Assembly: GCA_963841675.1 (NCBI GenBank)
Contig: CAWJEH010000017.1
Span: forward strand, 95,229 to 159,228
Source of the DNA: Terriglobia bacterium
GTDB taxonomy: Bacteria; Acidobacteriota; Terriglobia; Bryobacterales; Bryobacteraceae
DNA: 64,000 bases
Reading direction: 5' to 3'
Both the position numbers and the translations under genes were made by a program. Within the stretch, counting starts at the first letter, position 1. Every line of letters starts with the position of its first letter. This document shows positions 7,317 to 33,755 of this stretch, one piece after another. The notes under the pieces were generated by a model, which did not search any database, was not told the DNA's origin, and was given only the letters and a program-made list of their open reading frames with translations.

Positions 7317-7352
7317 AACAGCCGCTCCCTGATGACCCTAAGCACTCCGCTG

Positions 7353-8204
7353 CTACTGGTGTGGTGCATCGGGAAACTTTTCTTCGGTGCGCTTTGCACC
7401 ATTGAAGACCTGCACCAGGTAAACACGGGGTGGCGCCTGTACCTGCGGAGCAGGTTTTTTGAAGACAACCTGTTTGGGCTTTGGAGGTGCGCTTCCTTCC
7501 GAGAAGACACTGTTCATTGCGATACTTGCCGTTTTAGGAGTTTCCGTATCCAGAGGATTGCGCAAGACCAACTGAATTTTGGTTTGGTTGCTCGCCAGAC
7601 TGAGGAGTTCCGCTTGCTCGGGCGTTACCAACAGATTTACAACCTGCACCGGCACGGCTTTGCCCTCGTTATCCTTCTGAATGTTGGTTCCGGCCGACAG
7701 AACCTCGATATTCTGCAGAAGCGTCTTGACCCGCGGACCCTCCGCTGCGGCCGCACCAGTTCCGTTCCCCGATACCAGGACATCAACCCGCATGCCGGGC
7801 GTGACGAATCCGGCGACACCGACGACATCATCGACCCTGACCGCACAGGCTCTCATGCCCTGGCGAATGGTAGCAGCCAACCCCCCTCCGGAACCGGGTG
7901 CCGCCAGACGGCTGTCGAGAACCGGCTCGCTCTGATAAATATCCGACACGACACCTCGCCCCACGGCTGCAGCTTTAGAGAAAATTGTACCCTTCGGCGG
8001 GGTACCCATCCATTCGGCTGTCGCCAAATCGGTGTCTTTGATTAGGCTGCCGACCTGGAGGTCTCTGGATGCCACGATGATCGTTGTCGTGTGCGGCGGG
8101 GGTGGCGGATGCAGCTGCTTACCGGCTATACGGTAAACAAAATAACTCGATATAGCGGCCACTACAAACGCAAGAAAAAGAATGGTCGACAGTCTTCGGT
8201 TCAT
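7353..8204 (-). CDS. cpaB: Flp pilus assembly protein CpaB/RcpC (SAF-domain periplasmic protein)
   Basis: 283 aa. It has an N-terminal TM (STILFLAFVVAAISSYFVY), the SAF-like block IIVASRDLQVGSLIKDTDL, and the RcpC beta-domain. It lies 37 nt upstream of cpaC. Confidence 0.9.
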   Translation of the reverse strand: MNRRLSTILFLAFVVAAISSYFVYRIAGKQLHPPPPPHTTTIIVASRDLQVGSLIKDTDLATAEWMGTPPKGTIFSKAAAVGRGVVSDIYQSEPVLDSRLAAPGSGGGLAATIRQGMRACAVRVDDVVGVAGFVTPGMRVDVLVSGNGTGAAAAEGPRVKTLLQNIEVLSAGTNIQKDNEGKAVPVQVVNLLVTPEQAELLSLASNQTKIQLVLRNPLDTETPKTASIAMNSVFSEGSAPPKPKQVVFKKPAPQVQAPPRVYLVQVFNGAKRTEEKFPDAPHQ

Positions 8205-8251: not shown

Positions 8252-8266
8252 GCAATCTGTTGGCCA
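8252..8266 (-). promoter_or_regulatory. sigma54 (-24/-12) promoter for cpaB-cpaC-DUF192
   Basis: The minus strand reads TGGCCAACAGATTGC (plus strand GCAATCTGTTGGCCA), which is the exact TGGC-N7-TTGC spacing. It is intergenic and oriented toward cpaB. The GC of the -12 element lies 48 nt from the cpaB ATG (8204). Confidence 0.6.
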
Positions 8267-8326
8267 CCACTATACAATGGGGGAAACGCTAAATCAGTGT
8301 CTTACGAAAACAGCTTACAACGCAAG

Positions 8327-8375
8327 TGTGCACACCTGTTTACAGATTTCCAGGAAAGGTGTAGCGCTGTAGACA
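8327..8375. promoter_or_regulatory. candidate enhancer (UAS) sites: three TGT-N2-ACA octamers upstream of the cpaB sigma54 promoter
   Basis: The octamers are TGTGCACA (8327-8334), TGTTTACA (8337-8344) and TGTAGACA (8368-8375). The first two are 10 nt apart. They lie about 60-110 nt upstream of the -24 element. Confidence 0.4.
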
Positions 8376-8445
8376 CCCAGCGGCTCTTTGGCGAAGAACA
8401 TATGCGCCCATTCTCTTTCGGGCATCTTATTGCAAGCTAAAAGTC

Positions 8446-10158
8446 TTGGCACAGAGCTCTCAAATGCTGGAGCATGAGACTTCCGCTCCAACGGCCCTCC
8501 ACGACAAACAGCCCAGTTTCTCGACACTGCTCTCAGCAGGTGCTCGTCGCGGGCCACGACGCGTGTCAGCGTTTTCCCTCTCTGTAATATTGCACACGCT
8601 TGCGATCGCGGTTATGACGTTGTGGTCTGTGGACGCACCCCAGGGTAAAGCTGTCTCTTCCCCTAAACGGAGGTACTCCGTCCGCTTTCTGCAGCTGGCG
8701 CCGCTTCAGGAAATTAAGCAACGCGCCCTTGCGGCCACGGCCGGTCAAGGCGCAGGAGCAATGAAATCCCGAGGATTACCGAATTTGCAAGCGCGCCTGA
8801 CGGAGCGAGCTCCGGGAAATCTGGCAGGTTCGGAGGGATCCGAAGCCAAGCCCGCGGCTGAAACAGCCAGACCGGAGCGCCGCCGTTTTCAATTGCCGCC
8901 GACTGCTCACGTAGATCCGGTGAAACAGAGTCTAGTCCAAATGGATCTGCCGCCCAACATCTTGATGAAGCAGGACATTCCACTTCCGACGGTGGTTCTG
9001 TGGACCGAAACCGGACCCGCGCCGCCGATGAAAAAGACGTTCGTCGCGCCACCCATCAAAGAAGTCCCTAAGGTGGTACAACATCTGCCTAGAGCGCCTA
9101 TACTCGAACGTCCGAACCTGGAAACCAACGTTGCAGATCTCAACATGGCCAGCACCGTTCTCACGGATACTCCTCACCTGGTTCGTCCGCCGGGGATAGC
9201 CCCTCCCATCTCGAGCAAAGGGCAGCAAGCGGCGAAAGAGATTCCCAAGATCAGGGTGGCCGATTCCACTCAACCAAGCGCGGCCAACGTAATTTCCCTG
9301 CCGGTCAATCCGTCGCAGACGTCCCGGTTGCTGGTTCTTCCGCCGGTAAACCAGGTTGCCCCTTCGGATGCAGGAAATGACGGCATTTCGACCGCCTCGG
9401 GCAGCGCAGGCGGGGCCGGGAGCTCCGGGACTGAGGGCCGGGGTCTGAGCGCCTCTTCGCAAGTCACCTCGGAAAGCGCCGGTCGAGGAATTGCGGGAGG
9501 CGGATCGGGAACCGCCGCAGGAGTCAACGGCAGCCCCGGCGGGTCTTCTAGCTCAGGCAAGACGCCCAATTCAGGAAACGGAATACCCAGATCCGGGGCC
9601 GGGGGCACGGGGACCGGTTCTTCGGGTAGCGCGGCGAGCGGTTCTGGGACAAGCGGATCGCTGGGAACGCTTGGGGATATGGCTGGCGTGACACGAATCA
9701 CACTGCCCAAGGACGGCAAGTTTGGTGTGGTTGTGCTCGGGTCTGCCGGTTCGACGCCGTATCCGGAGAGCGTGGGTGCACTAAGCGGCAAGGTTGTCTA
9801 CACGGTTTACATGAAAGTCGGGCTCCGCAAGAGCTGGATTTTGCAGTACTGCCTTCCCAAAGCGACAGGCCTAAATGCCGTGAATGGAACGAGCACGACA
9901 CCCCTAGTCGCGCCCTGGCCTTTTCTTATACTGCGTCCAGACCAGCTGGCCGATGCTGATACGGATTACATCATCGTGCACGGGATACTGAATTCCGCAG
10001 GACAATTCGATCAGCTGGCGATGGTCTTTCCCGCCGAGCTCAATAAGAAAGATTTGCTGCTGAAGTCGCTAAAGCTGTGGGCCTTCCGACCGGCGAGCCG
10101 GGACGGAGTGCCGGTAGCGGTTGAGGTTCTGCTGATTATTCCGAGAGAGGACGGATAG
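8446..10158 (+). CDS. membrane-anchored protein with long Pro-rich and Gly/Ser-rich linker and TonB-C-terminal-like domain
   Basis: 570 aa. The N-terminal anchor is RRVSAFSLSVILHTLAIAVMTLW. A ~300-aa Pro-rich then G/S-rich disordered region follows. The C-terminus DLLLKSLKLWAFRPASRDGVPVAVEVLLIIP resembles the TonB C-terminal motif (W.F.PA...G.PV). The start is uncertain: TTG 8446 or ATG 8464. Confidence 0.5.
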   Translation: MAQSSQMLEHETSAPTALHDKQPSFSTLLSAGARRGPRRVSAFSLSVILHTLAIAVMTLWSVDAPQGKAVSSPKRRYSVRFLQLAPLQEIKQRALAATAGQGAGAMKSRGLPNLQARLTERAPGNLAGSEGSEAKPAAETARPERRRFQLPPTAHVDPVKQSLVQMDLPPNILMKQDIPLPTVVLWTETGPAPPMKKTFVAPPIKEVPKVVQHLPRAPILERPNLETNVADLNMASTVLTDTPHLVRPPGIAPPISSKGQQAAKEIPKIRVADSTQPSAANVISLPVNPSQTSRLLVLPPVNQVAPSDAGNDGISTASGSAGGAGSSGTEGRGLSASSQVTSESAGRGIAGGGSGTAAGVNGSPGGSSSSGKTPNSGNGIPRSGAGGTGTGSSGSAASGSGTSGSLGTLGDMAGVTRITLPKDGKFGVVVLGSAGSTPYPESVGALSGKVVYTVYMKVGLRKSWILQYCLPKATGLNAVNGTSTTPLVAPWPFLILRPDQLADADTDYIIVHGILNSAGQFDQLAMVFPAELNKKDLLLKSLKLWAFRPASRDGVPVAVEVLLIIPREDG

Positions 10159-10302
10159 CGCAGGAGCAGTATTATTGCGAAATCACCATCTGGGAGGAGC
10201 TGCTCATCGTTAGCGTTCTGGAGAACACGAACGGATTGCTAGGGTGTAGTGATACGTTAGCCTGACTGAGACTGAAGTCTGAGGATTGTTGTTGTGTCAC
10301 GC

Positions 10303-10317
10303 TGGGGTCACAGTTGC
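10303..10317 (+). promoter_or_regulatory. possible sigma54-type promoter for tadG-tadE-tadE (weaker match)
   Basis: TGGGGTCACAGTTGC has correct GG-N10-GC spacing but G instead of C at the fourth position. It lies 88 nt upstream of ATG 10405. No TGT-N2-ACA sites were seen upstream. Confidence 0.3.
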
Positions 10318-10404
10318 CCACCGAATGATGGGCAAAAACGAACATCAACGAGTGCGGCTCTCACGCCATTCGGATCCTGGCGAGTTTTCGATCGTCGTAT
10401 TGAG

Positions 10405-11645
10405 ATGAGGTTTTCACGCTCCCGCAGGGAAGCTAGGCGAATATTCGGGGATGAGAGCGGGCAAACGTTAGTGTTTGTCGTTTTATCCATGACACTGCTG
10501 CTTGGTTTTCTTGGATTCGCGGCTGATGTGGGTACCCTGTTTTACGCGAAAAGGCAGATACAAACAGCTGCCGATGCCGCCGCGATCGCTGGAGCGGCGG
10601 AACTGAACTACGGAAACTGGTCGACGGCTGCCCAGGACGCGGCAGCGCAGAACCACGTTGCAAATGGAAGTGGCGGAAGCGTGGTTACGGTAAACAGTCC
10701 ACCGCTCTATGGGAACTACAACGGTCTCTCCGGATATGTGGAGGCCATCGTTTCGCAACCACAGTCAACGATCTTTATGGGTATGTTCGGTCGAGGTTCA
10801 GTTACAGTCACGGCTCGAGCGGTCGGCCACTGGGGATCGAGCCGGACCTGTATCGCAACGCTGGGCACCTCGGGCACCGGCATTTCAGTAACAACGAGCA
10901 GTTCTAATCCGACACTCAATGCCCCCTTGTGTGGAATTTCCGATAACTCGTCTCTCACGGTGACTTCCAGCGGTGCCTCCCATCCAATAGTTGCTAATTC
11001 AATAGGCGTGTCGGGAAGCTATTCCCATACCGGAGGAACCGTTTCTCCGGCGCCGGTGGTGGGCATCGTTCCGGTAAGCGACCCATTGGCTTACCTCGCG
11101 GCGCCTCCGAGCGGGCCATGCCTCTCGAATCTTACTATTGTTGCCAGCGGAGGAACAGTCAATATCCCTCAGGGGAACTACTGCAGCGGAATTTCTATCA
11201 CTGCTTCCGGAACCACCGTGAATTTCGCCCCTGGGACTTATACCATCAGCGGCGGGTTGAGCATCACCGGTAGCGGAATCACCATCAACGGAACCGACGT
11301 AACCTTTTACATTCAGAGCGGCGCTCTTAATGTCACTCCTTCTCTGGGAGTACATTCAACCTTAGCGCGCCTACGTCGGGTACATACAACGGGGTTTTAT
11401 TCGACCAGAGTTCAAGTGACACCTCGGGAGCGCAAATCACCGAAAGTGGCACCAATTCGACGTTTGAAGGGGTCCTCTATTTCCCCGACGCTTCATTCAC
11501 AATGACCGCGAGCGGGAGTACCGCCAATCTTTATTTGGCTTTCGTGGTCAAATCTCTTACCCTAACTACCTCGGGCAGTGCCATAAAGGATTATGCCTCA
11601 CTTTATGGAACATCCCCGATAGGAGCGGCCGCCCTGGCGGAGTAA
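10405..11645 (+). pseudogene. tadG: TadG-like Flp pilus assembly protein (Tad N-terminal pseudopilin-like domain), reading frame broken by a 1-nt frameshift near 11331-11347
   Basis: The N-terminus GDESGQTLVFVVLSMTLLLGFLGFAADVGTLFYAKRQIQTAADAAAIAGAAEL is the TadG-N signature. The frame from 10405 ends in nonsense-looking residues (GVHSTLARLRRVHTTGFY...). The adjacent frame, open from 11331, encodes GSTFNLSAPTSGTYNGVLFDQSSSDTSGAQITESGTNSTFEGVLYFPDASFTMTASGS...AALAE and stops at 11645, 2 nt before the tadE ATG. Confidence 0.75.
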
Positions 11646-11647
11646 TT

Positions 11648-12181
11648 ATGAAGATTATGACGAAGACACATGCACAGAATTGCGAAAAGCGGTGGCTTGG
11701 AAGGGTCATGTGCGGAATGGATCGGGACAGCGAAGCTGGGACCGCACTCGTTGAATTGGCGCTGACATTGCCAGTCCTCGTAGCCCTGCTGGCTGGAGCG
11801 GCTCAGTACGGGCGGCTCGCGTATCTTGCGATCGAAGTTGCCAATGCCGCACGAGCCGGTGTTGCATATGGCGCGCAAAACCACGCTACGGCGTCGGACA
11901 TTGCGAACATGAGACAGGCGGCGCTCAATGATGGTGCCGATGTAACAGGTTCCGATGTGACGACCGCGTTGAGCGCCACTGCATCGAACCTCTGCGCCTG
12001 CTCCAACGCTCTTACCTCTACTTCTGCCTGTAGTAGCACCTTCAGTTGTTCTGGAACCAATCGTATCGTCGAGTACGTTCAAGTAAACACCACAGCTGGC
12101 GTGACGTCTCAGATCTATGTCCCCGGCCTTTCAAGAACATTCACCTTGAATGGTCAAGCCATCATGAGGGTGGCCCAGTGA
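11648..12181 (+). CDS. tadE: TadE-like pseudopilin / pilus assembly protein
   Basis: The block SEAGTALVELALTLPVLVALLAGAAQYGRLAYLAIEVANAARAGV matches the TadE-family N-terminal hydrophobic segment with its conserved E. The functional start may be an internal Met (MCGMDRD). Confidence 0.8.
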   Translation: MKIMTKTHAQNCEKRWLGRVMCGMDRDSEAGTALVELALTLPVLVALLAGAAQYGRLAYLAIEVANAARAGVAYGAQNHATASDIANMRQAALNDGADVTGSDVTTALSATASNLCACSNALTSTSACSSTFSCSGTNRIVEYVQVNTTAGVTSQIYVPGLSRTFTLNGQAIMRVAQ

Positions 12182-12220
12182 TATACCTAAAGATCGCAGT
12201 CGGTCGGAACTGAGTCGAGC

Positions 12221-12712
12221 GTGATGGGACGATTTCACGATCAGCTGTCTCTGCGGGTCGCGAGTGCGCGCAGGCTTAGCGTTCGACTTCGCCCGACTCC
12301 GTGTCTTATCCGAAGTGAGCACGGCGCAACCCTCATCGAGACCGCTCTTTCGTTTGCGATTGTTTTAAGCATGACAATCGGCATCATGGAGATCGGCCTG
12401 GCGCTTTATAGCTATCACTTTGTGTCCGAGGCCGCGCGTGACGCAACTCGTTACGCCATGGTTCGGGGGTCGTCCTGCACCGCCACGGGTTGCCCAGCCA
12501 CAAACTCAAGCGTTCAGAGTTATATCACAGGGTTGGGCTATCCCGGAATCGATCCGAGCAAAATGAGTGTCAGCACAACATGGCCATCTACGAACGCCCC
12601 AGGAAATTCCGTAAAGGTGACCGCAACTTATCAGTTTCCACTGTCGGTCCCGTTTGTGACAATCAGCACGATCAACATGAGCAGCACGTCTGAGATGGTG
12701 ATTTCGCAGTGA
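12221..12712 (+). CDS. TadE/TadF-like pseudopilin
   Basis: The block SEHGATLIETALSFAIVLSMTIGIMEIGLALYSYHFVSEAARDATRYAMV is a TadE-family segment. This is the second copy in tandem. Confidence 0.8.
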   Translation: MMGRFHDQLSLRVASARRLSVRLRPTPCLIRSEHGATLIETALSFAIVLSMTIGIMEIGLALYSYHFVSEAARDATRYAMVRGSSCTATGCPATNSSVQSYITGLGYPGIDPSKMSVSTTWPSTNAPGNSVKVTATYQFPLSVPFVTISTINMSSTSEMVISQ

Positions 12713-12848
12713 GACACCTCAAGAGCACCTAGAATTCCCACTCCACATAGCATGCACCTGAGATCGACGCCCTGGCTATACAGCTACTCTCGTTGCCTAA
12801 TCGTTTCATGAGTGCCTCTCACTCACGCGTACCGGGAATCAGCGCACG

Positions 12849-13265
12849 TCACTGCGTACCCGCTTCTTTGCCGAGGATGTCGCGAATAAACCCCTTCAAA
12901 GCTTTTCGTTCTTGGCTTCCGCCCAACATAAATTTGACGCCAACCCCCCCATCGGCATCCTGGCGAATGACTTTGCAAGGAATCGACAGAAATAGTGGGG
13001 CAACTGCGGTTCCATTTTGCGTGGTTCTTTGCTGAAGCGTTATCGTAAGAATTGTTCCGACGTACCAACGTTCCGTCGCGTGTATATAAGCGCCCGTAAG
13101 GCTGATATCCCTCACAGCGCGTTCCTTTGGAGCGCCACCGTCCCAGTAATGAGCCACGATTCCGGTGATCGGATACCGCTGCGCGCGTTTTTTCCGAGAC
13201 GGGTTCTGTTCCCACCAGCTCAGAATCGGCATACGACTATCGCTCCAGCGAGCGTTTTCCTTCAT
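12849..13265 (-). CDS. PilZ-domain protein (putative c-di-GMP receptor)
   Basis: 138 aa. An RxxxR-like basic motif (RKKRAQRYP) is followed about 25 aa later by DISLTGAY (D-x-S-x-x-G). The start codon overlaps the stop of the upstream DUF192 gene (ATGA, 13262-13265). Confidence 0.7.
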   Translation of the reverse strand: MKENARWSDSRMPILSWWEQNPSRKKRAQRYPITGIVAHYWDGGAPKERAVRDISLTGAYIHATERWYVGTILTITLQQRTTQNGTAVAPLFLSIPCKVIRQDADGGVGVKFMLGGSQERKALKGFIRDILGKEAGTQ

Positions 13266-13705
13266 CCGGATGCCGACTTATGACTCACCTCAGTTTGGTT
13301 CTCCTTCAAATAGGTCTTCATCTCATCCGGCGAGCAGATCAGCAGTTCATCACCTACGGCTGTCTGCGAGGAGTAGATTGTGCGAGTCGGCAGTTCCAAA
13401 ACACTCGAACAATTCTTTCGGATGGGCCCGATCCGGAACGTTCCAAACGATTCAGCTAACTGTATGACACGGTTCTGAGAATCCAGATAGATCAAATCGA
13501 TCGCAAAGAGCACACCGATCGTATGAACTCCCTGCGAGGGAATCACCCAAATACCCTCGTCGGATTTGAGCCGAAGTCTCCCGACCAATCCCAACAGACG
13601 TTTGAGATGCGTATCGGCGGGCGCAACACTCAAGCTTAAAAACGACTCCCGCGTCTTGTTGAATACGCAGTAGCGTTGCTGCGATTTTTTCTTATCGCCG
13701 TTCAA
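13262..13705 (-). CDS. DUF192 (UPF0127/COG1430) family protein, copy 2
   Basis: 147 aa. The blocks LKRLLGLVGR...EGIWVIPSQGVHTIGVLFAIDLIYLD...SVLELPTRT parallel the blocks in 5291..5635. It is translationally coupled to the PilZ gene. Confidence 0.75.
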   Translation of the reverse strand: MNGDKKKSQQRYCVFNKTRESFLSLSVAPADTHLKRLLGLVGRLRLKSDEGIWVIPSQGVHTIGVLFAIDLIYLDSQNRVIQLAESFGTFRIGPIRKNCSSVLELPTRTIYSSQTAVGDELLICSPDEMKTYLKENQTEVSHKSASG

Positions 13706-13795
13706 TCCGTTACCCTATCCTTTAACTAACCCCACTCTATACCAGCCTGCAGAACGATCCGTACTAATCGACAACCTCTTGATCTCCCGTGTAAT

Positions 13796-13891
13796 TTATC
13801 TAACGCGGGTACGACGACGCTGGATCAAAATGACCAGCACTACGACGAACAAGACGCCAGCGATGATCCGGATCAGAGTTGTACTATCCAT
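13796..13891 (-). CDS. unlisted 31-aa single-pass membrane peptide (MDSTTLIRIIAGVLFVVVLVILIQRRRTRVR)
   Basis: It is below the ORF-track size cutoff. The ATG at 13891-13889 is preceded by AAAGGAGAATCAAGTT (AGGAG, 9-nt spacer). It lies 30 nt downstream of the tadC stop. The hydrophobic core plus polybasic tail gives a positive-inside topology. Confidence 0.5.
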   Translation of the reverse strand: MDSTTLIRIIAGVLFVVVLVILIQRRRTRVR

Positions 13892-13921
13892 AACTTGATT
13901 CTCCTTTCTGCCGGCATCCGG

Positions 13922-14836
13922 CTACTTGAAGTTCTTTTGAAAGGACTCCACCATGATAAGGATGGCCGGTCCGAGCGTCACAACGAAGATTGCCGGAAAG
14001 ATAAAGAGGACCAGCGGGAATACCAGCTTTACTGCCGTTTTCGCAGCAAGTTCTTCGACCCGCTGCCGCCGCTGTACTCGTAAGGTATCGGAGTAGGTGC
14101 GCAAGGTTTTTGCGATGCCGGTCCCGAACTGCTCTGCCTGAATCACCGCAGAGACAAGCGTACGCATGATATCGATATCGACCCGCTCCGCCAGATGCCT
14201 CCAGGCATCTACCCGCGGACGCCCGGCACGCTGTTCCAGCAAGACTAATCCCAGTTCATCGCTGAGCTCCGGTTGACTGCCGCGCAGTTCGTCTACCGAG
14301 CGGCTAAGCGCCTGATCAAGGCTCAAGCCCGCTTCGATGCAGACTACCATCAAATCTAGAATCTCCGGCAGCCCCAGCCGAATGTTCGATTGTCTTTTCG
14401 CAATCCGTCGCCCCAACCAGAAATCCGGGGCTAGATAGCCTAGAGCCAGACACAACACATAAACAAAAAAAGGGCTGAGATGACTAATTCCACTAGCAGC
14501 AGCGAGTATGCATAACCAGATAGGAACCAGGACTTTGGCGCCGTAGAGAATGCGTACATGAGCGTCTTCTCGATAGCCAGCCCGAATGAGACGTTGTTGG
14601 GCTATCGAGACCTCTTTCGGGCTCTTCGGCAGCACCTTGTCGAACGGTTGGACAGCCGCCTTGAGCGACTTTCCCGCGCGGCTAATCTTCAGCCGGCTCC
14701 ACCAACTCTCGTCTTCAGCATGGGGAGAAATCGCCACCGAAAGCCGGCGCATCATTCCGGCACGGTAGAAGATCAGGAGGCCGCCGCTGCCGATCAGTAG
14801 GAATATTGCAAAGAACGTGAAAAGAGCAAGGCTCAT
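13922..14836 (-). CDS. tadC: Tad pilus inner-membrane platform protein TadC (T2SS-F family)
   Basis: 304 aa with the T2SSF-domain block LPEILDLMVVCIEAGLSLDQALSRS and three TM segments. It lies 9 nt after tadB. Confidence 0.9.
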   Translation of the reverse strand: MSLALFTFFAIFLLIGSGGLLIFYRAGMMRRLSVAISPHAEDESWWSRLKISRAGKSLKAAVQPFDKVLPKSPKEVSIAQQRLIRAGYREDAHVRILYGAKVLVPIWLCILAAASGISHLSPFFVYVLCLALGYLAPDFWLGRRIAKRQSNIRLGLPEILDLMVVCIEAGLSLDQALSRSVDELRGSQPELSDELGLVLLEQRAGRPRVDAWRHLAERVDIDIMRTLVSAVIQAEQFGTGIAKTLRTYSDTLRVQRRQRVEELAAKTAVKLVFPLVLFIFPAIFVVTLGPAILIMVESFQKNFK

Positions 14837-14845
14837 GAAAATCCC

Positions 14846-15814
14846 TCAAACCCGAATGCGGATGATCTTTCGGATGGTCAGTGCTCCGATCACCATCATC
14901 ACCGCGGCGGTGTAAAGCATCTTCAGACCCATCGGCCGTGTCCAGAGCAGGCTAATGCCCTTCGGATTGACTATGAAAAGAAGGGTTCCAAGAACGATAG
15001 GAAGGAAGGTAAGAATCCATCCCGTGAGGCGGCCTTGAGCGGTTTTGATCTGGATTTCCTTCCGTAAGCGAAATCGCTCACGGATGACGTACGAGCACTT
15101 GTCCAGCACCTCGGCGAGATTTCCGCCCGTTTCCTTCTGAATAAGAATGGCTGTCATCATGATGCGCACATCCTGAATCGGGACTCGAACAGCCAGGTTT
15201 TCCATCGCGGTACGCAGTTCCAGGCCGTAGTTCTGCTCGTCAAAGCAGATGCGGAACTCCCGGCCAATCGGGTCCGGCATCTCACGGGCAACAAGACCGA
15301 GAGAAGCCACCAGGCTGTGCCCGCTCCGGAGGCCGCTGACCATAAGGTCAAGCGTCGGGGGCAGCCCCTCTTCGAACTTGGCGAAGCGCTTGGCCCGTTT
15401 GTGAAATACGTACACGAAGGGCACAGCGGCGGGGGCCAACCCAAGAATCATCGAGAACAAAAAAGCATTGGTCTTCAGATAGATCAGATAGGTGCCAAAG
15501 ACATAAACCGTGAAAGCCAGTAGCAACAATCCGCCGGGAGTCCATTTGACATCAGCCTGATACAGCAGCCGCCGCAATTTCGGAGTGGCTTCCAGGCGTA
15601 GAAGCAGACGATTCAGAAAGGGGATCGTACTGAGCAGTTCCTGCTTCCGAATGTCGATCAGCTCGTCTTTGATTGCGCCCGTTGCAGTCGCCAGGACAGC
15701 ATCGAGCCGGGCCAAAGTCTGCTTCTCCCGTTCCGAGGCACCTGTTCCACTCGCTGCGAGCAGAAGAGCAGCTATCACGAATACAGCTAGAAAAACGACC
15801 GACGCAAGCAGCAT
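14846..15814 (-). CDS. tadB: Tad pilus inner-membrane platform protein TadB (T2SS-F family)
   Basis: 322 aa with the block LPPTLDLMVSGLRSGHSLVASLGLVAREMPDPIGREF typical of TadB/GspF-like proteins. Confidence 0.9.
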   Translation of the reverse strand: MLLASVVFLAVFVIAALLLAASGTGASEREKQTLARLDAVLATATGAIKDELIDIRKQELLSTIPFLNRLLLRLEATPKLRRLLYQADVKWTPGGLLLLAFTVYVFGTYLIYLKTNAFLFSMILGLAPAAVPFVYVFHKRAKRFAKFEEGLPPTLDLMVSGLRSGHSLVASLGLVAREMPDPIGREFRICFDEQNYGLELRTAMENLAVRVPIQDVRIMMTAILIQKETGGNLAEVLDKCSYVIRERFRLRKEIQIKTAQGRLTGWILTFLPIVLGTLLFIVNPKGISLLWTRPMGLKMLYTAAVMMVIGALTIRKIIRIRV

Positions 15815-15833
15815 TATCTCTTCTCCACTATGC

Positions 15834-17114
15834 TCAGCTCACTTCCATGGTTTTTTCGAACAGCTCGCCCGGAAGCAGCACCCCGGCGACGCGTAAGCGC
15901 TCCAGAAATCTCGGGCGAATGCCGCTCGGACGAAATTCTCCGATCACGTTGCCGCTCGGTCCGATACCCTTCTTCACGAAAGTGAAGATGTCATGCATGC
16001 TGATCACGTTTTCATCCATTCCCGTGATCTCGGAGACATTCATCACTTTCCTGGTGCCATCGCTCATGCGCGCGCACTGTACCACAATGGTCAGGGCGGC
16101 GGCGATCTGGTGCCGCACGGTCCGCTCCGGGAGATTCAGGCTGCCCATCGCCACCATCGACTCGAGCCGCATGAGTGCGTCGCGCGGGCTGTTGGCGTGA
16201 ATGGTGGTCATCGAACCCTCGTGGCCGGTGTTCATCGCTTGTAGCATATCGAAGGCCTCCTCACCACGGACCTCACCGATGATAATGCGGTCCGGCCGCA
16301 TGCGGAGGCTATTGGTCAGCAGCTGGCGCTGCCGGATCGCTCCTTCGCCTTCCACGTTGGGAGGTCTGGTTTCGAGCCTTACTACGTTCTCCTGCGCAAG
16401 CTGTAACTCGGCGGCATCTTCGATGGTGACCAAGCGCTCGGTGGACGGAATATACTGCGAAAGCATATTCAAGAACGTCGTTTTACCGGCACCGGTACCG
16501 CCCGAGATCAAAATGCTGATACGGGCGCGAACGGCGGCTGAGAGAAGCTGCAGTATCTCGGGCGACGCACTTTTCAGACCCACCAGCGCATCGGCCGAAA
16601 GAGGACCTGTTCCAAAACGCCGGATGGATAATGCAGGACCGTCCAGGGCGAGCGGAGGGATAATGGCGTTTACACGGGAGCCATCCGGAAGCCGCGCGTC
16701 CACCATCGGCGAGGACTCGTCGACCCTTCTGCCTACCTGCGAGACGATTCGATCGATGATCTGAAGGAGATGGCGGTCATCCCGGAAAACCACATCGGTT
16801 TTTTGCAGAATACCGCCTCGCTCGATATAAACCAGGTTCTTGCTATTTACGAGGATGTCGGACACCTTCGAGTCGCGCAGCAGCCCTTCGAGGGGACCCA
16901 ACCCGAAAACCTCATCCAGCAAGTCCGACTGAATTTTCTCTTTTTCGGCAGCGCTCAGGGGCAGCTTGCCATCGGTGATGATCGTCTGAACAAGGTTTGC
17001 CACAGCCTGCCTCGCTTTCGCGGGCTGCACCGTCGCCAGCTTCTCCAGATCGACCTTGGAAATCAGCGTTCGATGGATTTCGGCCTTGAATTGCTCGAAA
17101 TTCAATTTTTCCAT
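15834..17114 (-). CDS. cpaF: Tad pilus secretion ATPase CpaF/TadA
   Basis: 426 aa. It carries Walker A ([14 protein letters not shown]), the Asp box and Walker B ([15 protein letters not shown]), and the His box ([12 protein letters not shown]). Confidence 0.95.
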
Positions 17115-17152
17115 TGCCTTACCTACGTGTGAAGATCAAGGTAGATGTCTGC

Positions 17153-18376
17153 CTAGCGGAAGAAGCCGAGCTTTTTCTTTTTCTCGGGATCCGGGGTCTG
17201 GCCGCACGCCTCGGCCGCCATTTGCGCAAAGGCGCGCGCCAGGTTATTTTTTTCCGTCGCGACCGGCATCCCGGTGTTTTGCGCCCGCCGAACCGCCACG
17301 AAGTCATTCGGCACCTTCCATTTTGCCGGCTTCGTCAAGGCTTTGGTGATGGCGCCGTCGTCGATCTCGATGTTTCGCACAAGATACCGGTTCAGGACGA
17401 TCTCCAGCTTTCCATCATCTCTCCCGCCAAAATAGCGTGCAACAAAACGATTGGAGTTACGCAGTTCGGCAACGCTCACCTGGGTCACCAAATAGACTGT
17501 GGAGGCTATTTCGACGAGCGCCTCGTACATGTCGATTGAATGCGATCCAGCGTCCACTACAACGTAGCCGAAGTCTTCCCGAGCAACACGCAACAGTTTC
17601 TCTATTCCATCCTGCGGCGGCTGGGCAGCAGGGATGCTGTCGGGAGCGCCCAGAACCGCGAGACCGGAACTATGCTTTGCCATCAGGACCGAGAGGAAAT
17701 CCGAATCGAGGCGGTTCACGCTCTCGAGCGCATCCACCGCAGTGAATTTAGTCGTAAGACCTAAGCTGAGAGCGGCATCGCCGAGCTGCAGGTCGAGGTC
17801 TATCAAAGCCACTTTACTGCTGGCCTGCTTGGCTAATGCGACGGCGAAATTACTTGCCACGGTGGTCACGCCCGAGCCGCCCTTGGCACCTACAAAGACC
17901 AACAATTTCCCCGTTGCGCGCCTGTGGCGGCGTACTTCGTCGCGGCGCACCGAAGCGCGAACCAACGCCTCGCCTACGGAGCCCGGCAGCACCGGTTCGG
18001 TCAGAAATTCGCGGGCACCGGCGCGCATACATCGAACAAGCAACTCAGAATCAGTGCTGCCCGAGTAGACCATCACGGTTACCGAGCTGTTCCTTCCGCA
18101 GAGATTCTCAACCACATCCAAGGCGTGCTCCGGATTGGGATCGAGATCGATGAGCACGACGTCATAATCCGCTTCAATGATCCCGGCGAGGTCGTCCACC
18201 TGCGGGTAGCGCGTGAGCTCGCGAACAATATTGGCCTGCGGCCCGGCCAGCGCCTTCGCTACGGCGCGGCGTCTCTCCTCATGCGGCCCGATCAGTATGA
18301 GAGAGAGCGCACTCATACTCAGCGACTCAGTATCGCGCATAAAGGTGGACATCACGCCAGTCCTGCTTTCGCCCAT
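17153..18376 (-). CDS. cpaE: CpaE/TadZ: receiver-like N-domain plus MinD/ParA-type ATPase
   Basis: 407 aa. The REC-like region is SLILIGPHEE...VVLIDLDPNPE...VMVYSG. The deviant Walker A is VFVGAKGGSGVTTVASN. The exact start is uncertain. Confidence 0.9.
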   Translation of the reverse strand: MGESRTGVMSTFMRDTESLSMSALSLILIGPHEERRRAVAKALAGPQANIVRELTRYPQVDDLAGIIEADYDVVLIDLDPNPEHALDVVENLCGRNSSVTVMVYSGSTDSELLVRCMRAGAREFLTEPVLPGSVGEALVRASVRRDEVRRHRRATGKLLVFVGAKGGSGVTTVASNFAVALAKQASSKVALIDLDLQLGDAALSLGLTTKFTAVDALESVNRLDSDFLSVLMAKHSSGLAVLGAPDSIPAAQPPQDGIEKLLRVAREDFGYVVVDAGSHSIDMYEALVEIASTVYLVTQVSVAELRNSNRFVARYFGGRDDGKLEIVLNRYLVRNIEIDDGAITKALTKPAKWKVPNDFVAVRRAQNTGMPVATEKNNLARAFAQMAAEACGQTPDPEKKKKLGFFR

Positions 18377-18434
18377 TGTTTGCTTTCCAAAATTAAACGT
18401 TTAACTAATCCGCTCAAGCTTAATATGCCGCTTC

Positions 18435-18953
18435 TCATGACACAGCAAAAAAAGAAAAGATTGTCCCTATCGCAATGGCCGGCGCATACGGCATTTTCCG
18501 GGCAGCGGCGTTCCCCGGCACCAGCGTTTCGTGCGCCCTGAGACCACGCTTCGCCATTCCGAAAATCAGGTCGCTCGTACCGCTCAACGATTCCTTCAGA
18601 AATCCGCCGCAGGTGGCCCAAATTACCGCCATAATACCCCCGGCGATTCCCATAATCACCATCGCCAGCAGGAGTTGGGACGGGCCAATCCACGCCCCGA
18701 TTGCAGCGCAGAGCTTCACGTCCCCCATCCCCATGCCTCCGAGCCAGTAAAAGAAACCCAATGCGAGTGAAGCAATCAACACGCCCAGAACGCTCTGCCC
18801 GAGTCCGCTCCACCCGCGAGTGGCGCTAGAAACGGCAATTCCTGCCGCCAAAAACGGGAACACCAGCCAGTTCGGAATTCGCCGGCTTCGAAGGTCCGAA
18901 ACCGTCGCCGCCGTGAGCACGATGAGAGTAGGCCACCAGGCGATGGAATGCAT
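18435..18953 (-). CDS. cpaA: Flp prepilin peptidase CpaA/TadV (A24 aspartic peptidase, no methyltransferase domain)
   Basis: 172 aa and polytopic. The two catalytic-Asp contexts are VSDLRSRRIPN and GMGMGDVKL. Confidence 0.9.
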   Translation of the reverse strand: MHSIAWWPTLIVLTAATVSDLRSRRIPNWLVFPFLAAGIAVSSATRGWSGLGQSVLGVLIASLALGFFYWLGGMGMGDVKLCAAIGAWIGPSQLLLAMVIMGIAGGIMAVIWATCGGFLKESLSGTSDLIFGMAKRGLRAHETLVPGNAAARKMPYAPAIAIGTIFSFFAVS

Positions 18954-19025
18954 ATGAAACCAGAATAGAACTTGCGCCCGCGTCTCGAATCTACTTAGTC
19001 TGACTATTTACTATCGCAATCCGGT

Positions 19026-19040
19026 AGCCATTCCCGGCCA
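19026..19040 (-). promoter_or_regulatory. sigma54 (-24/-12) promoter for cpaA-cpaE-cpaF-tadB-tadC operon
   Basis: The minus strand reads TGGCTACCGGATTGC (plus strand GCAATCCGGTAGCCA), with exact spacing. It sits in the 127-nt gap between the GT-C gene stop (19081) and the cpaA ATG (18953), 73 nt from the ATG. Confidence 0.6.
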
Positions 19041-19080
19041 TTGGAGTATCGTCCTTGCTTTGAGGAGTGCCGTTCAACTG

Positions 19081-20730
19081 TCAACGCCTGTACACAGAAG
19101 CAAACGCCCCGTCACGCCTTGTATACACGAGCGCCGGAGAACTCGCCACCACTGGGAGTAGCAGAGCCAGATCCGCGATCGGTCCAGTGATGAATTCGCA
19201 GCCTGCGACTGTTACCGCATGCAAATCTTGGGCCGGAAATTTCGCGCGCAACTCACTCAGCCCGCGCTGGTACTCGGCGCCCTCGGGCGGCAGAGGAAAT
19301 AAAACGAAGTTCGTGAACCCGCTCGTGTCGAGATGTCCAACCAGGCGGGTATCTCGATACTGCATAGTAAATGCCCGTTCTCCCGCGGGTGATTTAAATT
19401 CGGGATATTCCACCGTAACGTATTGGGGGAAATAGTATCCGGCATGTCGAAATCCGAGAAAATGAGAGTCCAATCCGACGATTAAGCTACTTCTTCGGGA
19501 ACCAACTCGCGGTAGTGCTTCTTCGACCCTTCCAAGTTGCGCCTCAAATCGCCGCACGCTCTGATAAGAGCAGTAAAGGGGCGCGTACAGAAAGACAGCT
19601 ATGTTTACGGCCGCAAAGAGGCCTGCTAATGCGGCTTTGAAAGAGTTATGTAGCCGTGTTCGCTCCCACCATTCCGATATCCAGCAAGCGAGCCAGATGC
19701 ACAACGGAGGGAAGATGACCAGAAGATATCCACTATTGATGACCCTAAAAAACACGAAAGTAAAGAACAGCAGGGCAGGCGCGATCCAAACCCATGTGAA
19801 CGTCTTCTGTCGCGATGCTTTCGTGGGCCCAGTACACAAAGGCCGGGCAAACAGCACGCTAGCTGGCCCGAAGCAAAGTACGACAAGGCCGCCGATCAGG
19901 AGTAATCGCGCAATTGAAAGGAGTAGGAATGAGCCGGACGCATTCTGGTGGCCTGGCGACATTCTCCACAGCAGAGAAAGAGAGGAGAAGTAGGCGGCCG
20001 GTCCCCCGCTCGCGTAGACCATCGGCAAGAACCAGGCGAGCAGGGCAATTAGCAACGCCGCAAGGCCGCCCAAAACTCTAGCAAGCGGAATACGGCTGAG
20101 GAACTGGCCCAAAGCGGAACGCCGCGGAAACCGGGGTTCCTCTCGTCGACCCGCGGCATTGCCCGCATCCCTCGCACTCGAAACTGAAAACATGAAGAGC
20201 GGACCAAGGAACTGAAGAGTTGAAGGACGTACGCCTGCGGCAAATCCGAGAATGAGCGCGCCCGGTACGAGCCATTTCTCAGAGCCGACGTAAATTCTCC
20301 AACAAACGTACCCGATCAGAGCAGAGAAGAACGCCTCCACAATGTAAGTCAGGGCGACTGTGCCGTGGAACCAGGCAAGCGGCGACACCAAAAAGAGAAG
20401 GCCAGCAAAACGGGCTGCCCGGGTTCCGAACCATTGGTCTGCGAGCGTATAGGTTACTACGACGGCTCCACAACTGGCAGCTATGCTCACTAAGACAAAC
20501 GCCGCGTTAGGGTCATGGAAGAACTCGTTTAGCAGCTTTCCCAGACACACGTAGAGGAAGTACCCCGGAGGCTGCGGTTGATGAACGGCAGGATCGAAGC
20601 GGCCGATCGCCAGCGCAAAATTCACTGAATCAACGTCATATAACCGATGACTGCGGAAAAAAAAGCGCGTGAGCCCGACCGCGACGACCAACACGCTGCG
20701 ATCCACGTCTTGCCGGGGGCTCACAGACAC
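19081..20730 (-). CDS. GT-C-fold membrane glycosyltransferase (PMT/ArnT/DUF2723-like)
   Basis: 549 aa with more than 10 hydrophobic segments. The first loop is RLYDVDSVNFALAIGRFDPAVHQPQPPGYFLY, an acidic DxD-type loop motif followed by PPGY. A ~150-aa soluble C-terminal domain follows. The N-terminus is uncertain because the putative promoter predicts a TSS near 20726; in-frame GTGs lie at 20724 and 20706. Confidence 0.7.
   Translation of the reverse strand: MSVSPRQDVDRSVLVVAVGLTRFFFRSHRLYDVDSVNFALAIGRFDPAVHQPQPPGYFLYVCLGKLLNEFFHDPNAAFVLVSIAASCGAVVVTYTLADQWFGTRAARFAGLLFLVSPLAWFHGTVALTYIVEAFFSALIGYVCWRIYVGSEKWLVPGALILGFAAGVRPSTLQFLGPLFMFSVSSARDAGNAAGRREEPRFPRRSALGQFLSRIPLARVLGGLAALLIALLAWFLPMVYASGGPAAYFSSLSLLWRMSPGHQNASGSFLLLSIARLLLIGGLVVLCFGPASVLFARPLCTGPTKASRQKTFTWVWIAPALLFFTFVFFRVINSGYLLVIFPPLCIWLACWISEWWERTRLHNSFKAALAGLFAAVNIAVFLYAPLYCSYQSVRRFEAQLGRVEEALPRVGSRRSSLIVGLDSHFLGFRHAGYYFPQYVTVEYPEFKSPAGERAFTMQYRDTRLVGHLDTSGFTNFVLFPLPPEGAEYQRGLSELRAKFPAQDLHAVTVAGCEFITGPIADLALLLPVVASSPALVYTRRDGAFASVYRR
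19089..19127. promoter_or_regulatory. candidate enhancer sites: two TGTA-Y-ACA octamers upstream of the cpaA sigma54 promoter
   Basis: TGTACACA (19089-19096) and TGTATACA (19120-19127) are 31 nt apart. They lie 50-90 nt upstream of the -24 element, inside the last codons of the GT-C gene. Confidence 0.35.
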
Positions 20731-20736
20731 CTGAAC

Positions 20737-20751
20737 GCAATCACGCAGCCA
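20737..20751 (-). promoter_or_regulatory. sigma54-type promoter facing the GT-C glycosyltransferase gene
   Basis: The minus strand reads TGGCTGCGTGATTGC (plus strand GCAATCACGCAGCCA), with exact spacing. It is divergent from the flp promoter. It lies only 7 nt from the annotated GTG start, so either the start is further downstream or the match is fortuitous. Confidence 0.45.
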
Positions 20752-20818
20752 CTCTTTGGGTGCTTAAGTATGCAGGAGCGCCTTAACCGCATACCTACGT
20801 TTCCTGGGATAGCGTGTT

Positions 20819-20836
20819 TGTATACGGCTGTGGACA
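20819..20836. promoter_or_regulatory. candidate enhancer sites between the divergent flp and GT-C sigma54 promoters
   Basis: TGTATACG (20819-20826, 7 of 8) and TGTGGACA (20829-20836) are 10 nt apart. This is the same pair geometry as at 8327/8337. Confidence 0.35.
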
Positions 20837-20843
20837 CTGCGAT

Positions 20844-20885
20844 AACTGCAGCAGACCGATGAAGAACTGCAGTAGACCGATGAAC
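20844..20885. repeat. perfectly abutting 21-bp tandem direct repeat (2 copies, 2 mismatches)
   Basis: AACTGCAGCAGACCGATGAAG (20844-20864) abuts AACTGCAGTAGACCGATGAAC (20865-20885). Each copy contains the CTGCAG palindrome. The repeat ends 37 nt upstream of the flp -24 GG. Confidence 0.85.
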
Positions 20886-20921
20886 CGCTTTCGTTTCAGT
20901 ACGTTCCGTGAGTGTGACGTT

Positions 20922-20936
20922 TGGCTCCCGAATTGC
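20922..20936 (+). promoter_or_regulatory. sigma54 (-24/-12) promoter for flp (and probably the downstream glycosylation genes)
   Basis: TGGCTCCCGAATTGC has the exact TGGC-N7-TTGC spacing. It lies 60 nt upstream of the flp ATG (20996), which has its own AGGAGA Shine-Dalgarno. Confidence 0.65.
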
Positions 20937-20995: not shown

Positions 20996-21202
20996 ATGCG
21001 AAATGCTTTTCTGAAACTCTACGTGAAGGCCGAGGTGATGCTGGCCGCGATTAAAAACGAAGAAGACGGACAGGATCTCATCGAGTACGCACTCGTAGTA
21101 GCCCTTATTGCCCTTGCCGCCACGGCCGGAATGAGTACTCTGGCCACCAGCATCAACAGTGCCTTTACATCCGTCGCTACCAAGCTCAACAGCTACGTCT
21201 AA
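20996..21202 (+). CDS. flp: Flp/Fap-family type IVc prepilin
   Basis: 68 aa: MRNAFLKLYVKAEVMLAAIKNEEDG|QDLIEYALVVALIALAATAGMSTLATSINSAFTSVATKLNSYV. The G-XXXX-EY processing motif is followed by a hydrophobic helix. The predicted mature pilin is 43 aa with a Ser/Thr-rich C-terminal half. Confidence 0.9.
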   Translation: MRNAFLKLYVKAEVMLAAIKNEEDGQDLIEYALVVALIALAATAGMSTLATSINSAFTSVATKLNSYV

Positions 21203-22392: not shown

Positions 22393-22414
22393 ACATCCGT
22401 CGCGGGCCCAATGT

Positions 22415-24193: not shown

Positions 24194-24215
24194 ATGCGTC
24201 TCAGAAGATTGACTG

Positions 24216-25031: not shown

Positions 25032-25086
25032 CATCCATCTTTGCGGCTCTGGATTCAGCTGCTGCGATCCTGTCCAAAAGCGTGCA

Positions 25087-28843: not shown

Positions 28844-28932
28844 GTACGAAGTTATTGGCTTACGATTCCAAGCGGACAGACAGAGTATGCGATTTCGTTG
28901 CGGCGGATACTACGCCGCGATTATGTGAGCCG

Positions 28933-31852: not shown

Positions 31853-32023
31853 CCTTCCTTGTGTTCGACTGTCCGGAGACTTGAGAATACTGGCTATTAG
31901 GACTCTAATCAAGCCCTCAGTGAGTACTACCCTTTAGTCCCCGTAATAGTACCGATTCATCACTTAAGGGTAATACCGCTGTCGGGCGGCAAGCCCCTTT
32001 AACGCTTTGCAGTTTGCAGTCCA

Positions 32024-33103: not shown

Positions 33104-33755
33104 GTTGAAACTGTTCCTCGATCCATTTACGATGCACTCGCGCAGCTACCAAAGCAGAGTTTGGGACCGTGCAGCGCGATCTTACCACGAACGGTTGCAT
33201 TTCCGGGGCCATTCGGGTACGGAAATCACAGAAACGATTGGAAGTGCGCATGCTCTGGAAAGAGTCGCAATTCTCATTTCTGAATCGCCGCTACTTTCCC
33301 GGTTCCAATCCAGCCCGGCGTGGCGGCAGGAACATTGCCGCCCGGCGGACGATAGTTTCTCGTTTACCGGATCTTAAAGCAATCAAATGAATTAGCTCAT
33401 CGCCAAGAACCAGTGTGGGGAGGGTTGCCGGCCAGATCGCCGACCTCGTTTAGGAGGATGTTAACGCCTGTATACACAGCGCACACCCAAGTCTACGCGT
33501 GTATCCACCCGTTTGTTCCCGGCGAGCGATCGAATGTTTCTATCCTTTCGCTTAAGTTCGCAAGCTTTTACAGCACGAGGCACGCGTTGATAAACAAACC
33601 TTATCCTTGCACGCCGTCCACGAGATCTGTGCTAATAGTGCATTCCGGAGCGGGACGTCGATAGTTTCGTGGGGTTCAAGAGAATTTCGAGGATTAGATG
33701 GCAGCGACGAGGGATTGGAATTTACATGCTGAACCAAGAGCGAGAGGCAATGCAC

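Follow-up and report, generated by a model that had tools for sequence, protein, structure and literature searches.

CtrA regulates Tad in Caulobacter, and in the PilS/PilR systems of type IVa pili the pilin gene alone is sigma-54-dependent, the assembly genes being outside this control. Among other Tad regulators in model bacteria, PprB acts in Pseudomonas aeruginosa (Bernard et al. 2009, as cited in PMC3333781), and Pectobacterium has a two-component regulator for flp/tad, the sigma-54 activator VasH having been tested there and found not to control these genes (PMC3767616). The sigma-54 response regulator DVU2114 of Desulfovibrio vulgaris has binding sites upstream of genes for Flp-type pilins, and these genes are followed by cpa/tad genes (PMC3333781); the DVU2114 regulon has been listed with sigma-54 promoters (Kazakov et al. 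2015, PMC4641369). Our full-text literature search on Tad-type pili returned DVU2114 as the sole sigma-54 precedent. Papers on Burkholderia, P. fluorescens, Ralstonia and Pectobacterium gave no sigma-54-Tad link, and neither Flp/Tad nor Acidobacteria is mentioned in the surveys of Francke 2011 (PMC3162934) and of 2025 (PMC12316311). Here we analyse a locus for an adhesive pilus of the Tad/Flp type in 64,000 nucleotides (nt) of a soil Terriglobia bacterium of the Acidobacteriota (contig CAWJEH010000017.1, positions 95,229 to 159,228; hereafter the window) together with the corresponding loci of its relatives, which are labelled L001, L083 and so on.

We propose that this pilus locus is very probably a single enhancer-dependent sigma-54 regulon served by five promoters. 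A first-pass annotation of the window had placed flp, the cpaA operon, cpaB-cpaC and a GT-C glycosyltransferase gene in one RpoN regulon, a reading now backed by a shared enhancer, conserved promoter-enhancer modules and the linkage of an activator gene. The same annotation stated that the Tad loci studied so far are not described as wholly RpoN-driven; this stands for Aggregatibacter, Caulobacter and Pseudomonas, but it overlooked DVU2114. Sigma-54 control thus appears barely described for Tad/Flp pili, and not at all for this phylum.

Predicted promoters and enhancers of the Tad locus

Pfam scans of the window recovered the full set of a Tad/Flp (type IVc) pilus: Flp pilin, A24 prepilin peptidase, TadZ, the CpaF/TadA ATPase, the TadB/C platform, RcpC/CpaB, the secretin and the TadE/G minor pilins. 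The matching families were Flp_Fap, Peptidase_A24, TadZ-like REC+ParA, T2SSE, two T2SSF, RcpC, Secretin and Tad/TadE, alongside a Sigma54_activat enhancer-binding protein (EBP). The genes that matter here are the following.

5706-7316, minus strand: cpaC, the secretin gene (Pfam)
7353-8204, minus strand: cpaB (RcpC; Pfam), the cpaB-cpaC string spanning 5706-8204
8446-12712, plus strand: orf570, tadG and two tadE genes (Pfam and start check), the true start of tadG being ATG 10405
12849-18953, minus strand: the string cpaA, tadZ, cpaF, tadB, tadC, DUF192 and PilZ (Pfam), of which the tadC, tadB, cpaF, tadZ and cpaA portion covers 13922-18953
19081-20724, minus strand: gene for a putative GT-C-type polytopic glycosyltransferase (TMEM260/DUF2723/PMT_2-like), with a YDVDS motif in the first loop; counted from the upstream GTG, the open reading frame (ORF) is 19081-20730
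20996-21202, plus strand: flp pilin gene (PF04964), 68 residues, processing motif G-QDLI-EY
30443-31852, minus strand: NtrC-class EBP with receiver, AAA+ and Fis-type helix-turn-helix domains and a GAFTGT loop; longest ORF 30443-31912, likely start ATG 31852

The DUF192 and PilZ-domain genes lie downstream of tadC on the same strand (12849-13705), likewise in L083 and L084, which hints at a cyclic di-GMP input to the Tad machine.

Five sigma-54-type promoters can be placed against this map, the last of them unseen in the first-pass annotation.

20922-20936, plus strand: flp promoter TGGCTCCCGAATTGC, predicted transcription start ~20948, flp ATG at 20996
20737-20751, minus strand: GT-C gene promoter TGGCTGCGTGATTGC, predicted start ~20725, at GTG 20724
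8252-8266, minus strand: cpaB-cpaC promoter TGGCCAACAGATTGC, predicted start ~8240, cpaB ATG at 8204
19016-19030, minus strand: promoter of the cpaA-tadZ-cpaF-tadB-tadC-DUF192-PilZ operon TGGCTACCGGATTGC, predicted start ~19004, ATG at 18953
8419-8433, plus strand: promoter directed toward orf570, and possibly serving tadG-tadE-tadE, CGGGCATCTTATTGC, predicted start ~8445, with exact GG-N10-GC spacing and a non-canonical -24 element

A search of the window found the four 15-mers reported earlier on the strands given, and the gene map bears out that all four are intergenic and oriented toward the adjacent gene. Some details had to be amended. The cpaA site, reported at 19026-19040, belongs 10 nt further left, and the form common to the sites is TGGCY-N5-ATTGC, the reported N6 version matching two unrelated sites. 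The gaps to the start codons, reported as 7-73 nt, are 59 nt for flp, 62 nt for cpaA, 47 nt for cpaB and, for the GT-C gene, 6 or 12 nt, depending on whether GTG 20730 or GTG 20724 is taken as the start. In all five promoters the GG and GC doublets are exactly 10 bp apart, and they are invariant in our alignments A2, A3 and A4. The -12 element, ATTGC, is good, and the -24 element reads TGGCY (CGGGCA at orf570) against a consensus of TGGCAC-N5-TTGCW.

The basic pattern TGGC-N7-TTGC occurs seven times in the window against 2.93 expected, a count reached by 5 of 100 shuffles, and this enrichment is weak when taken alone; the matches at 6914 and 11757 fall within cpaC and tadE. The extended form TGGCY-N5-ATTGC is found five times against 0.31 expected, with none of 100 shuffles reaching five, and four of its five copies are intergenic and correctly oriented. 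With about 4% of strand-specific positions falling within 100 nt upstream of a start codon, the basic-pattern count leads to an estimate of ~0.12 correctly placed sites against the 4 seen. The fifth extended-form match (63464-63478, minus strand) lies inside a fumarylacetoacetate-hydrolase gene, has no enhancer, and is probably a chance match or a non-productive intragenic sigma-54 site.

On a generic sigma-54 matrix the flp site reaches 10.7 bits, and those of cpaA, cpaB and the GT-C gene do not attain the 9 bits required for listing. As this matrix failed to separate the sites from background, we adopted a comparative analysis. This yielded a clear clade-specific consensus, tTGG(c/a)-N6-(A/G)ATTGC, on whose matrix the flp site has the top score (22.3 bits). 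In the three tad intergenic regions no sigma-70-like consensus was seen.

Lining up the DNA upstream of the promoters brought out an 18-bp near-palindrome, TGTnnAC-N4-GTnnACA (the dyad), with the consensus TGTAAACAG/CTGTTTACA. We regard it as the putative enhancer.

20819-20836: flp/GT-C enhancer TGTATACGGCTGTGGACA, between the divergent promoters, at 85 nt (flp) and 67 nt (GT-C gene) from their -24 elements
19079-19096: cpaA enhancer TGTGTACAGGCGTTGACA (minus-strand reading), 48 nt upstream of the -24 element, overlapping the 3' end of the GT-C ORF
8327-8344: cpaB enhancer site a TGTAAACAGGTGTGCACA (minus-strand reading), 60 nt upstream of the cpaB -24 element
8358-8375: enhancer site b, a weaker dyad TGTCTACAGCGCTACACC (minus-strand reading), separated from site a by 13 nt in the direction of orf570
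33459-33476: fourth enhancer copy TGTTAACGCCTGTATACA, 23.2 bits, upstream of the minus-strand string orf160, DUF5658, EBP and orf514

Matches to the pattern TGTNNACNNNYGTNNACA number four in the window, where 0.00 would be expected; three of them served to derive it, so that, within the window, only the fourth tests it independently. The four dyads score 22-26 bits on a symmetric matrix made from the window and its relatives, compared with 10.6 for the next best site in the 64 kb. At the four main promoters a dyad stands 48-85 nt from the -24 element (38-85 nt counting orf570). A spacing of 60-64 nt puts the centre of the dyad near -96 from the predicted start, which is the usual binding region of enhancer-binding proteins. 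Two of the enhancer regions lie between divergent promoters, flp/GT-C and cpaB/orf570, and so would be expected to serve both directions.

The fourth dyad lies upstream of the gene string that contains the activator itself, which suggests autoregulation. Its best partner, TGGCCCCGGAAATGC at 33197-33211 (minus strand), is 247 nt away and weak (7.4 bits), and for a TGGC 53 nt from it (33402-33405, minus strand) the nearest ATTGC is 12 nt too distant. A search around this dyad gave no plus-strand partner, no informative sigma-70 match and no homologous context in L090.

Between the enhancer and the flp promoter the window carries a 21-bp tandem duplication:

20844-20884, plus strand: AACTGCAGYAGACCGATGAA, in two copies (AACTGCAGCAGACCGATGAA and AACTGCAGTAGACCGATGAA)

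The repeat was considered as a shared regulator site and rejected, being unique to flp and specific to the window; it is absent from the three nearest relatives, L083-L085 (alignment A3). It stretches the spacing between the enhancer and the flp promoter from the usual 64-67 nt to 85 nt and, amounting to two helical turns, would preserve the phasing.

Based on this arrangement, we envisage that the activator encoded at 30443-31852 would bind the dyads as dimers and, once some kinase had activated its receiver domain, would assemble into an AAA+ ring. DNA looping would bring it to the closed sigma-54 holoenzyme at the promoter, and ATP hydrolysis would open the promoter, transcription starting about 12 nt past the C of TTGC. 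The expected outcome is a signal-dependent, tight, all-or-none co-expression of the pilin, the inner-membrane motor, the secretin, the glycosyltransferase and probably the minor pilins.

Conservation in related Acidobacteriota

A CpaF scan taking one genome per species gave 80 loci, the nearest of which (70-79% identity) come from metagenome-assembled genomes of Acidobacteriaceae/Terriglobia and from Terriglobus albidus. The exact dyad is present in eight of the 80, and seven of these eight are among the twelve closest, where it lies upstream of cpaA, flp or cpaB. The module of enhancer plus promoter recurs before these three genes in about 20 related Acidobacteriaceae loci, usually with a spacing of 60-64 nt, in intergenic DNA that has otherwise diverged. 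For the pairing we took a close set of 14 loci (303 kb including the window) and dyads with at most one mismatch: 21 of the 28 dyads have a TGG-N8-YTGC site directed away from them, again with a modal spacing of 60-64 nt. In the distant loci (1.19 Mb), 4 of 30 dyad-like sites are paired, at scattered distances and at a rate near the chance expectation of 11%.

Upstream of cpaA in nine genomes (alignment A2), where mean identity is 50%, the invariant columns are the dyad, the TGG and the ATTGC, and the same footprint pattern is seen at flp/GT-C and at cpaB/orf570. Closer genomes, retrieved with the GT-C and CpaB proteins, keep the layout of the window, with flp followed by the GT-C gene, sometimes a second flp, and then cpaA. 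The flp promoter is present in all six of L083-L086, L088 and L089, and additionally in L004, L006, L009 and L012. The cpaA promoter with its dyad is likewise found in all six, the dyad spacing in relatives being 59-64 nt, and its 15-mer is identical to that of the window in L083 and L084. The flp/GT-C dyad occurs in five of the six (exact in four, with one mismatch in L089, and not found in L088) and is conserved in all four genomes of alignment A3. At cpaB the promoter TGGCC-N5-GATTGC is present in all four of L090-L093, where site a of the dyad has zero mismatches and lies 59-60 nt from the -24 element; the promoter is also present in L005, L009 and L011, and site b is kept in all five genomes examined. 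The motif is therefore retained at the orthologous cpaA, flp and cpaB positions, paired with the enhancer, as the first-pass annotation had asked of relatives.

As a control we used the generic sigma-54 matrix, which owes nothing to the sites of the window. Of 49 cpaA genes, 10 have an upstream site of at least 11 bits, as have 10 of 29 flp genes; for tadZ, cpaF and tadB, with about 78 genes each, there are none. Among 74 flp genes recognised by a G-x4-EY signature, strong sites occur in the sense direction at 15 and in the antisense direction at 3 (Fisher p = 0.002). As judged from these sequences, sigma-54-type flp promoters are recurrent, but not universal, in Acidobacteriota.

Two variations in layout were noted. 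A second flp lies between the promoter of the cpaA operon and cpaA in L085 (9715-9906), L086 (4698-4892), L088 (4694-4885) and L089 (4710-4904); the window is without this second gene, and its cpaA enhancer-promoter spacing is 48 nt as against 59-60 nt. In L072 (1693-3903), a distant member of the Acidobacteriota, several flp genes stand in tandem and at least three have a near-identical sigma-54-type site, CTGGCAA-N6-CTTGCT, 66-117 nt upstream, so that sigma-54-driven flp would not be limited to the dyad-bearing clade.

The GT-C promoter is kept in six of seven close genomes, and its state in individual relatives is as follows.

L084: TGGCTCCTGGATTGC
L085: TGGCTGCTCGATTGC
L086: TGGTTCCTGGATTGC
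L088: TGGCGTGGAGATTGC
L089: TGGTTTTTGGAGTGC, with a weaker -12 element
L083: -24 and -12 elements both mutated
L009 and L010 (more distant): no equivalent site

By this comparison the GT-C promoter is the least widely conserved of the four, yet real within the nearest clade. The protein itself falls below the Pfam threshold (PMT_2 21.7 bits, TMEM260-like 21.6 bits), although most of its homologues (50-73% identical) carry PF11028 or PF13231. It has at least eight hydrophobic segments and a conserved YD(V/I/L)DS motif. A metagenome scan with it gave just two distant loci, at 29% identity.

The geometry of this promoter points to an unusual transcript. The N-terminus M-(S/P/L)-(P/S)-R-Q is conserved, its opening codon being GTG 20724 in the window, where the public annotation also starts the protein (P0001, 547 residues), and ATG in four relatives. 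In six genomes 13-14 nt separate this codon from the C of the -12 TTGC upstream of it. Sigma-54 transcripts begin about 12 nt past that C, so the GT-C leader would measure 1-2 nt, which implies an effectively leaderless mRNA as predicted from the geometry. This prediction would also account for the short distance between the promoter and start codon that the first-pass annotation had recorded.

A comparable situation is met at orf570, which encodes a single-pass, Ser/Gly-rich protein with no Pfam family. Its promoter element, CGGGCAT-N4-xTTGC (the TTCGGGCAT...TTGC block), is present in five of five genomes, 38-43 nt from enhancer site b, and L001 and L005 have better-matching sites directed at their orf570 homologues. 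The codon TTG 8446 is conserved in four of five genomes, 13-14 nt after the C of the -12 element, and the frames of the window and L090 agree from this codon onward (alignment A4, by eye). The orf570 mRNA is thus possibly leaderless as well, with its predicted start on a conserved start codon. Directly after the promoter stands TTGGCAC (8446-8452), which resembles a canonical -24 element and includes the candidate TTG start codon; a similar motif occurs in L090, L091 and L092 (exact in L090 alone), with no -12 partner.

We tentatively suggest that each bidirectional enhancer pairs a leadered promoter (flp, cpaB) with a divergent leaderless one (GT-C, orf570), an arrangement that might couple the pilin to a glycosyltransferase modifying the pilin or pilus; this is possible, though we would not put it at even odds. 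In a limited literature search we found no description of sigma-54-dependent leaderless genes.

The genes orf570, tadG and the two tadE lie on one strand and may form one transcript. The weaker tadG candidate proposed earlier, TGGGGTCACAGTTGC at 10303-10317 (plus strand), is not supported: it is intergenic but reaches 0.1 bits with the clade matrix, no enhancer lies near it, and the alignment of tadG upstream regions was too diverged to inform on it. It seems more likely that tadG is driven from the conserved orf570 promoter than from this site.

The candidate activator and the weight of the evidence

Pfam bears out the reported sigma-54 activator at 30443-31852, with matches to Sigma54_activat (PF00158, E = 1.4e-66), AAA_lid_14 and HTH_8; its Response_reg match is weak (E = 3e-4), and a candidate phospho-acceptor Asp lies in the stretch DVLLLDLD of the translation, which is conserved in orthologues. 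The nearest solved structures are Aquifex NtrC1 and NtrC4, with a full-length match to NtrC4 (4l4u), and FlbD, FlgR and FleQ are among its sequence relatives. It falls below every NCBIfam equivalog cutoff (best AtoC, 348.6 bits against a 714-bit cutoff) and is a member of an unnamed subfamily with no named specificity.

Orthologues with 50-58% identity lie immediately divergent from cpaA in L001, L003, L005, L008 and L054. Each of these five loci has the dyad between the two genes and an orf514 homologue adjoining the orthologue. Common to the orthologues are GAFTGT and the recognition helix GNKTLAARSLNISRAYLHRLIR; the helix differs in more distant homologues, whose loci are without the dyad. 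In the window, the activator and orf514 are split from cpaA by flp and glycosylation-type genes (~11 kb), and the activator lies 10 kb from flp. No sigma-54 promoter was found for the activator gene in relatives, where it is therefore probably sigma-70-driven.

Several points weigh against a single sigma-54 regulon run by this activator. The case is computational throughout, being made from sequence and comparison, and the counts from related loci share ancestry and do not represent independent events. The -24 element is TGGCY and not the canonical TGGCAC; the generic matrix distinguishes none of the four sites from background, and the clade matrix was partly built from the window sites that it ranks highest. 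The fourth dyad has no convincing promoter partner. The link between activator and dyad would rest on synteny and co-variation, the receiver domain of the window protein lacks one of the two N-terminal acidic residues kept by its relatives, and no histidine kinase lies nearby. Pfam scans did not find rpoN in the 64-kb window, and its presence is implied by the activator.

How far these points favour other explanations can be judged from the evidence above. That the promoter sites are chance matches of a short GC-rich pattern, with the tad genes on housekeeping promoters, would fit the failure of the generic matrix and the mere ~2.4-fold enrichment of the eight-base pattern, which 5 of 100 shuffles equal. 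We consider this very unlikely indeed, given the counts of the extended motif, the conservation at orthologous positions across ~20 loci, and the fact that all four sites are intergenic, correctly oriented and paired with a dyad that is expected ~0 times by chance. The promoters might instead be genuine while another regulator binds the dyad and an EBP encoded elsewhere drives transcription. TGT-N-ACA dyads are common to many regulators, NifA with its TGT-N10-ACA site being one example, and the distance of the activator gene from flp, its position below the equivalog cutoffs and the purely sequence-based assignment of the dyad to it would all suit such a scheme. We nevertheless regard it as improbable: the orthologue is immediately divergent from cpaA in five relatives with the dyad in between, recognition helix and dyad are conserved together and both differ in more distant loci, the dyad recurs upstream of the activator's own gene string, and the 60-64 nt spacing with a centre at about -96 is typical of enhancer sites.

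A narrower view limits sigma-54 control to flp, cpaA and cpaB and takes the sites at the GT-C gene and orf570 for non-productive sigma-54 binding sites or relics, these two genes using other promoters. At both sites the predicted start falls on the start codon and leaves no room for a leader or ribosome-binding site, and the GTG or TTG codons of several genomes are poor for leaderless translation in E. coli, according to work cited in PMC3616915. L083 has a mutated GT-C promoter and L009 and L010 have none, the orf570 -24 element is CGGGCA in place of TGGCAC, and non-productive or intragenic sigma-54 sites are noted as common in E. coli (PMC4591121). Set against this, the two sites are kept in six of seven close genomes and five of five genomes, respectively, amid diverged DNA; the conserved 13-14 nt between the -12 C and a start codon that is ATG in four genomes argues for functional coupling; and these regions hold no sigma-70-like site. 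On balance we think this view rather doubtful, and a regulon of five promoters remains our preferred reading.

The remaining features of the window can be summarised briefly. Between flp and the activator (21325-30477) lie genes for a GT2 glycosyltransferase, a methyltransferase and four large membrane proteins of polytopic type, orf592, orf637, orf709 and orf514 (no Pfam family), orf514 and orf637 being paralogues that share a DPD(L/I)WWH motif. In many of the related Acidobacteriota loci retrieved, tblastn locates homologues of these genes close to flp or the activator gene, and the block may be a pilin or pilus glycosylation module. PDB sequence searches with the GT-C protein and orf514 gave no match, and exact look-ups of Flp and P0001 gave no record. 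An Rfam scan of the window had no match, and the flp 5' leader folds no better than shuffles (z = -0.8). An intergenic region of 1 kb holds a good sigma-54-like site, tTGGGGCTTGAATTGCt (45942-45956, plus strand), to which the clade matrix gives 14.1 bits. This site precedes a DksA/TraR zinc-finger gene (46207-46629) by 250 nt and has no tad-type dyad nearby; it may belong to the regulon of another activator or drive a small RNA. A cell-wall signalling cluster occupies 38121-45210 (minus strand), where a 1095-residue ORF combining FtsW/RodA and transpeptidase domains is followed by genes for a Ser/Thr protein kinase, a PP2C phosphatase and an FHA-domain protein.

Comparison with known systems

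If the regulon is as proposed, sigma-54 control, which in type IVa pili is confined to the pilin gene, would here take in an entire Tad machine, and pilin expression would be linked with a glycosyltransferase. Few soil bacteria are as abundant as Acidobacteria, and the regulation of their surface structures is scarcely understood. The circuit is compact, comprising a candidate activator, an 18-bp site and five promoters, and the cultivable relative Terriglobus albidus (DSM 26559, L005) carries the same modules, with dyad and sigma-54 site at cpaA and at cpaB. Enhancer-promoter pairs at a conserved 60-64 nt could also be of use as regulatory parts for genetics in the phylum.

The likeness to DVU2114 of D. 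vulgaris Hildenborough (Rajeev et al. 2011) lies in a sigma-54 response regulator that is encoded beside a Flp/Cpa/Tad locus and acts at pilin genes. That system belongs to a different phylum and has two target operons and no glycosyltransferase target, whereas five promoters and two bidirectional enhancers are predicted here; DVU2114 is backed by binding data from DNA-affinity-purified chip (DAP-chip) experiments, and the present case is comparative only. The PilS/PilR systems of P. aeruginosa, Myxococcus xanthus and Geobacter sulfurreducens similarly have an NtrC-class regulator that acts from upstream binding sites on a -24/-12 promoter of the major pilin gene (as cited in PMC3333781 and PMC2725144). 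They differ in serving a type IVa pilus with the kinase PilS encoded adjacently, while the pilus here is of the Tad/IVc type with no adjacent kinase seen, and the activator matches no PilR model among its top NCBIfam matches.

The coordination of several surface-appendage operons by one EBP recalls the flagellar regulons of FlrC, FleR, FlbD and FlgR, although these serve a different machine through a multi-tier hierarchy and our activator falls below the cutoffs of their families. A further parallel is E. coli pspF-pspABCDE: in L001, L003, L005, L008 and L054 the activator gene is likewise divergent from its target, a layout that permits autoregulation, but PspF has no receiver domain, and the activator in the window has moved ~11 kb from cpaA, unlike the psp layout. 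With PprB, CtrA and the Pectobacterium regulator the locus shares a dedicated response regulator over flp and tad, but those systems use sigma-70-type promoters. What is new here is the phylum, the completeness of the proposed sigma-54 control, a defined enhancer, the bidirectional layout and the possible leaderless transcripts.

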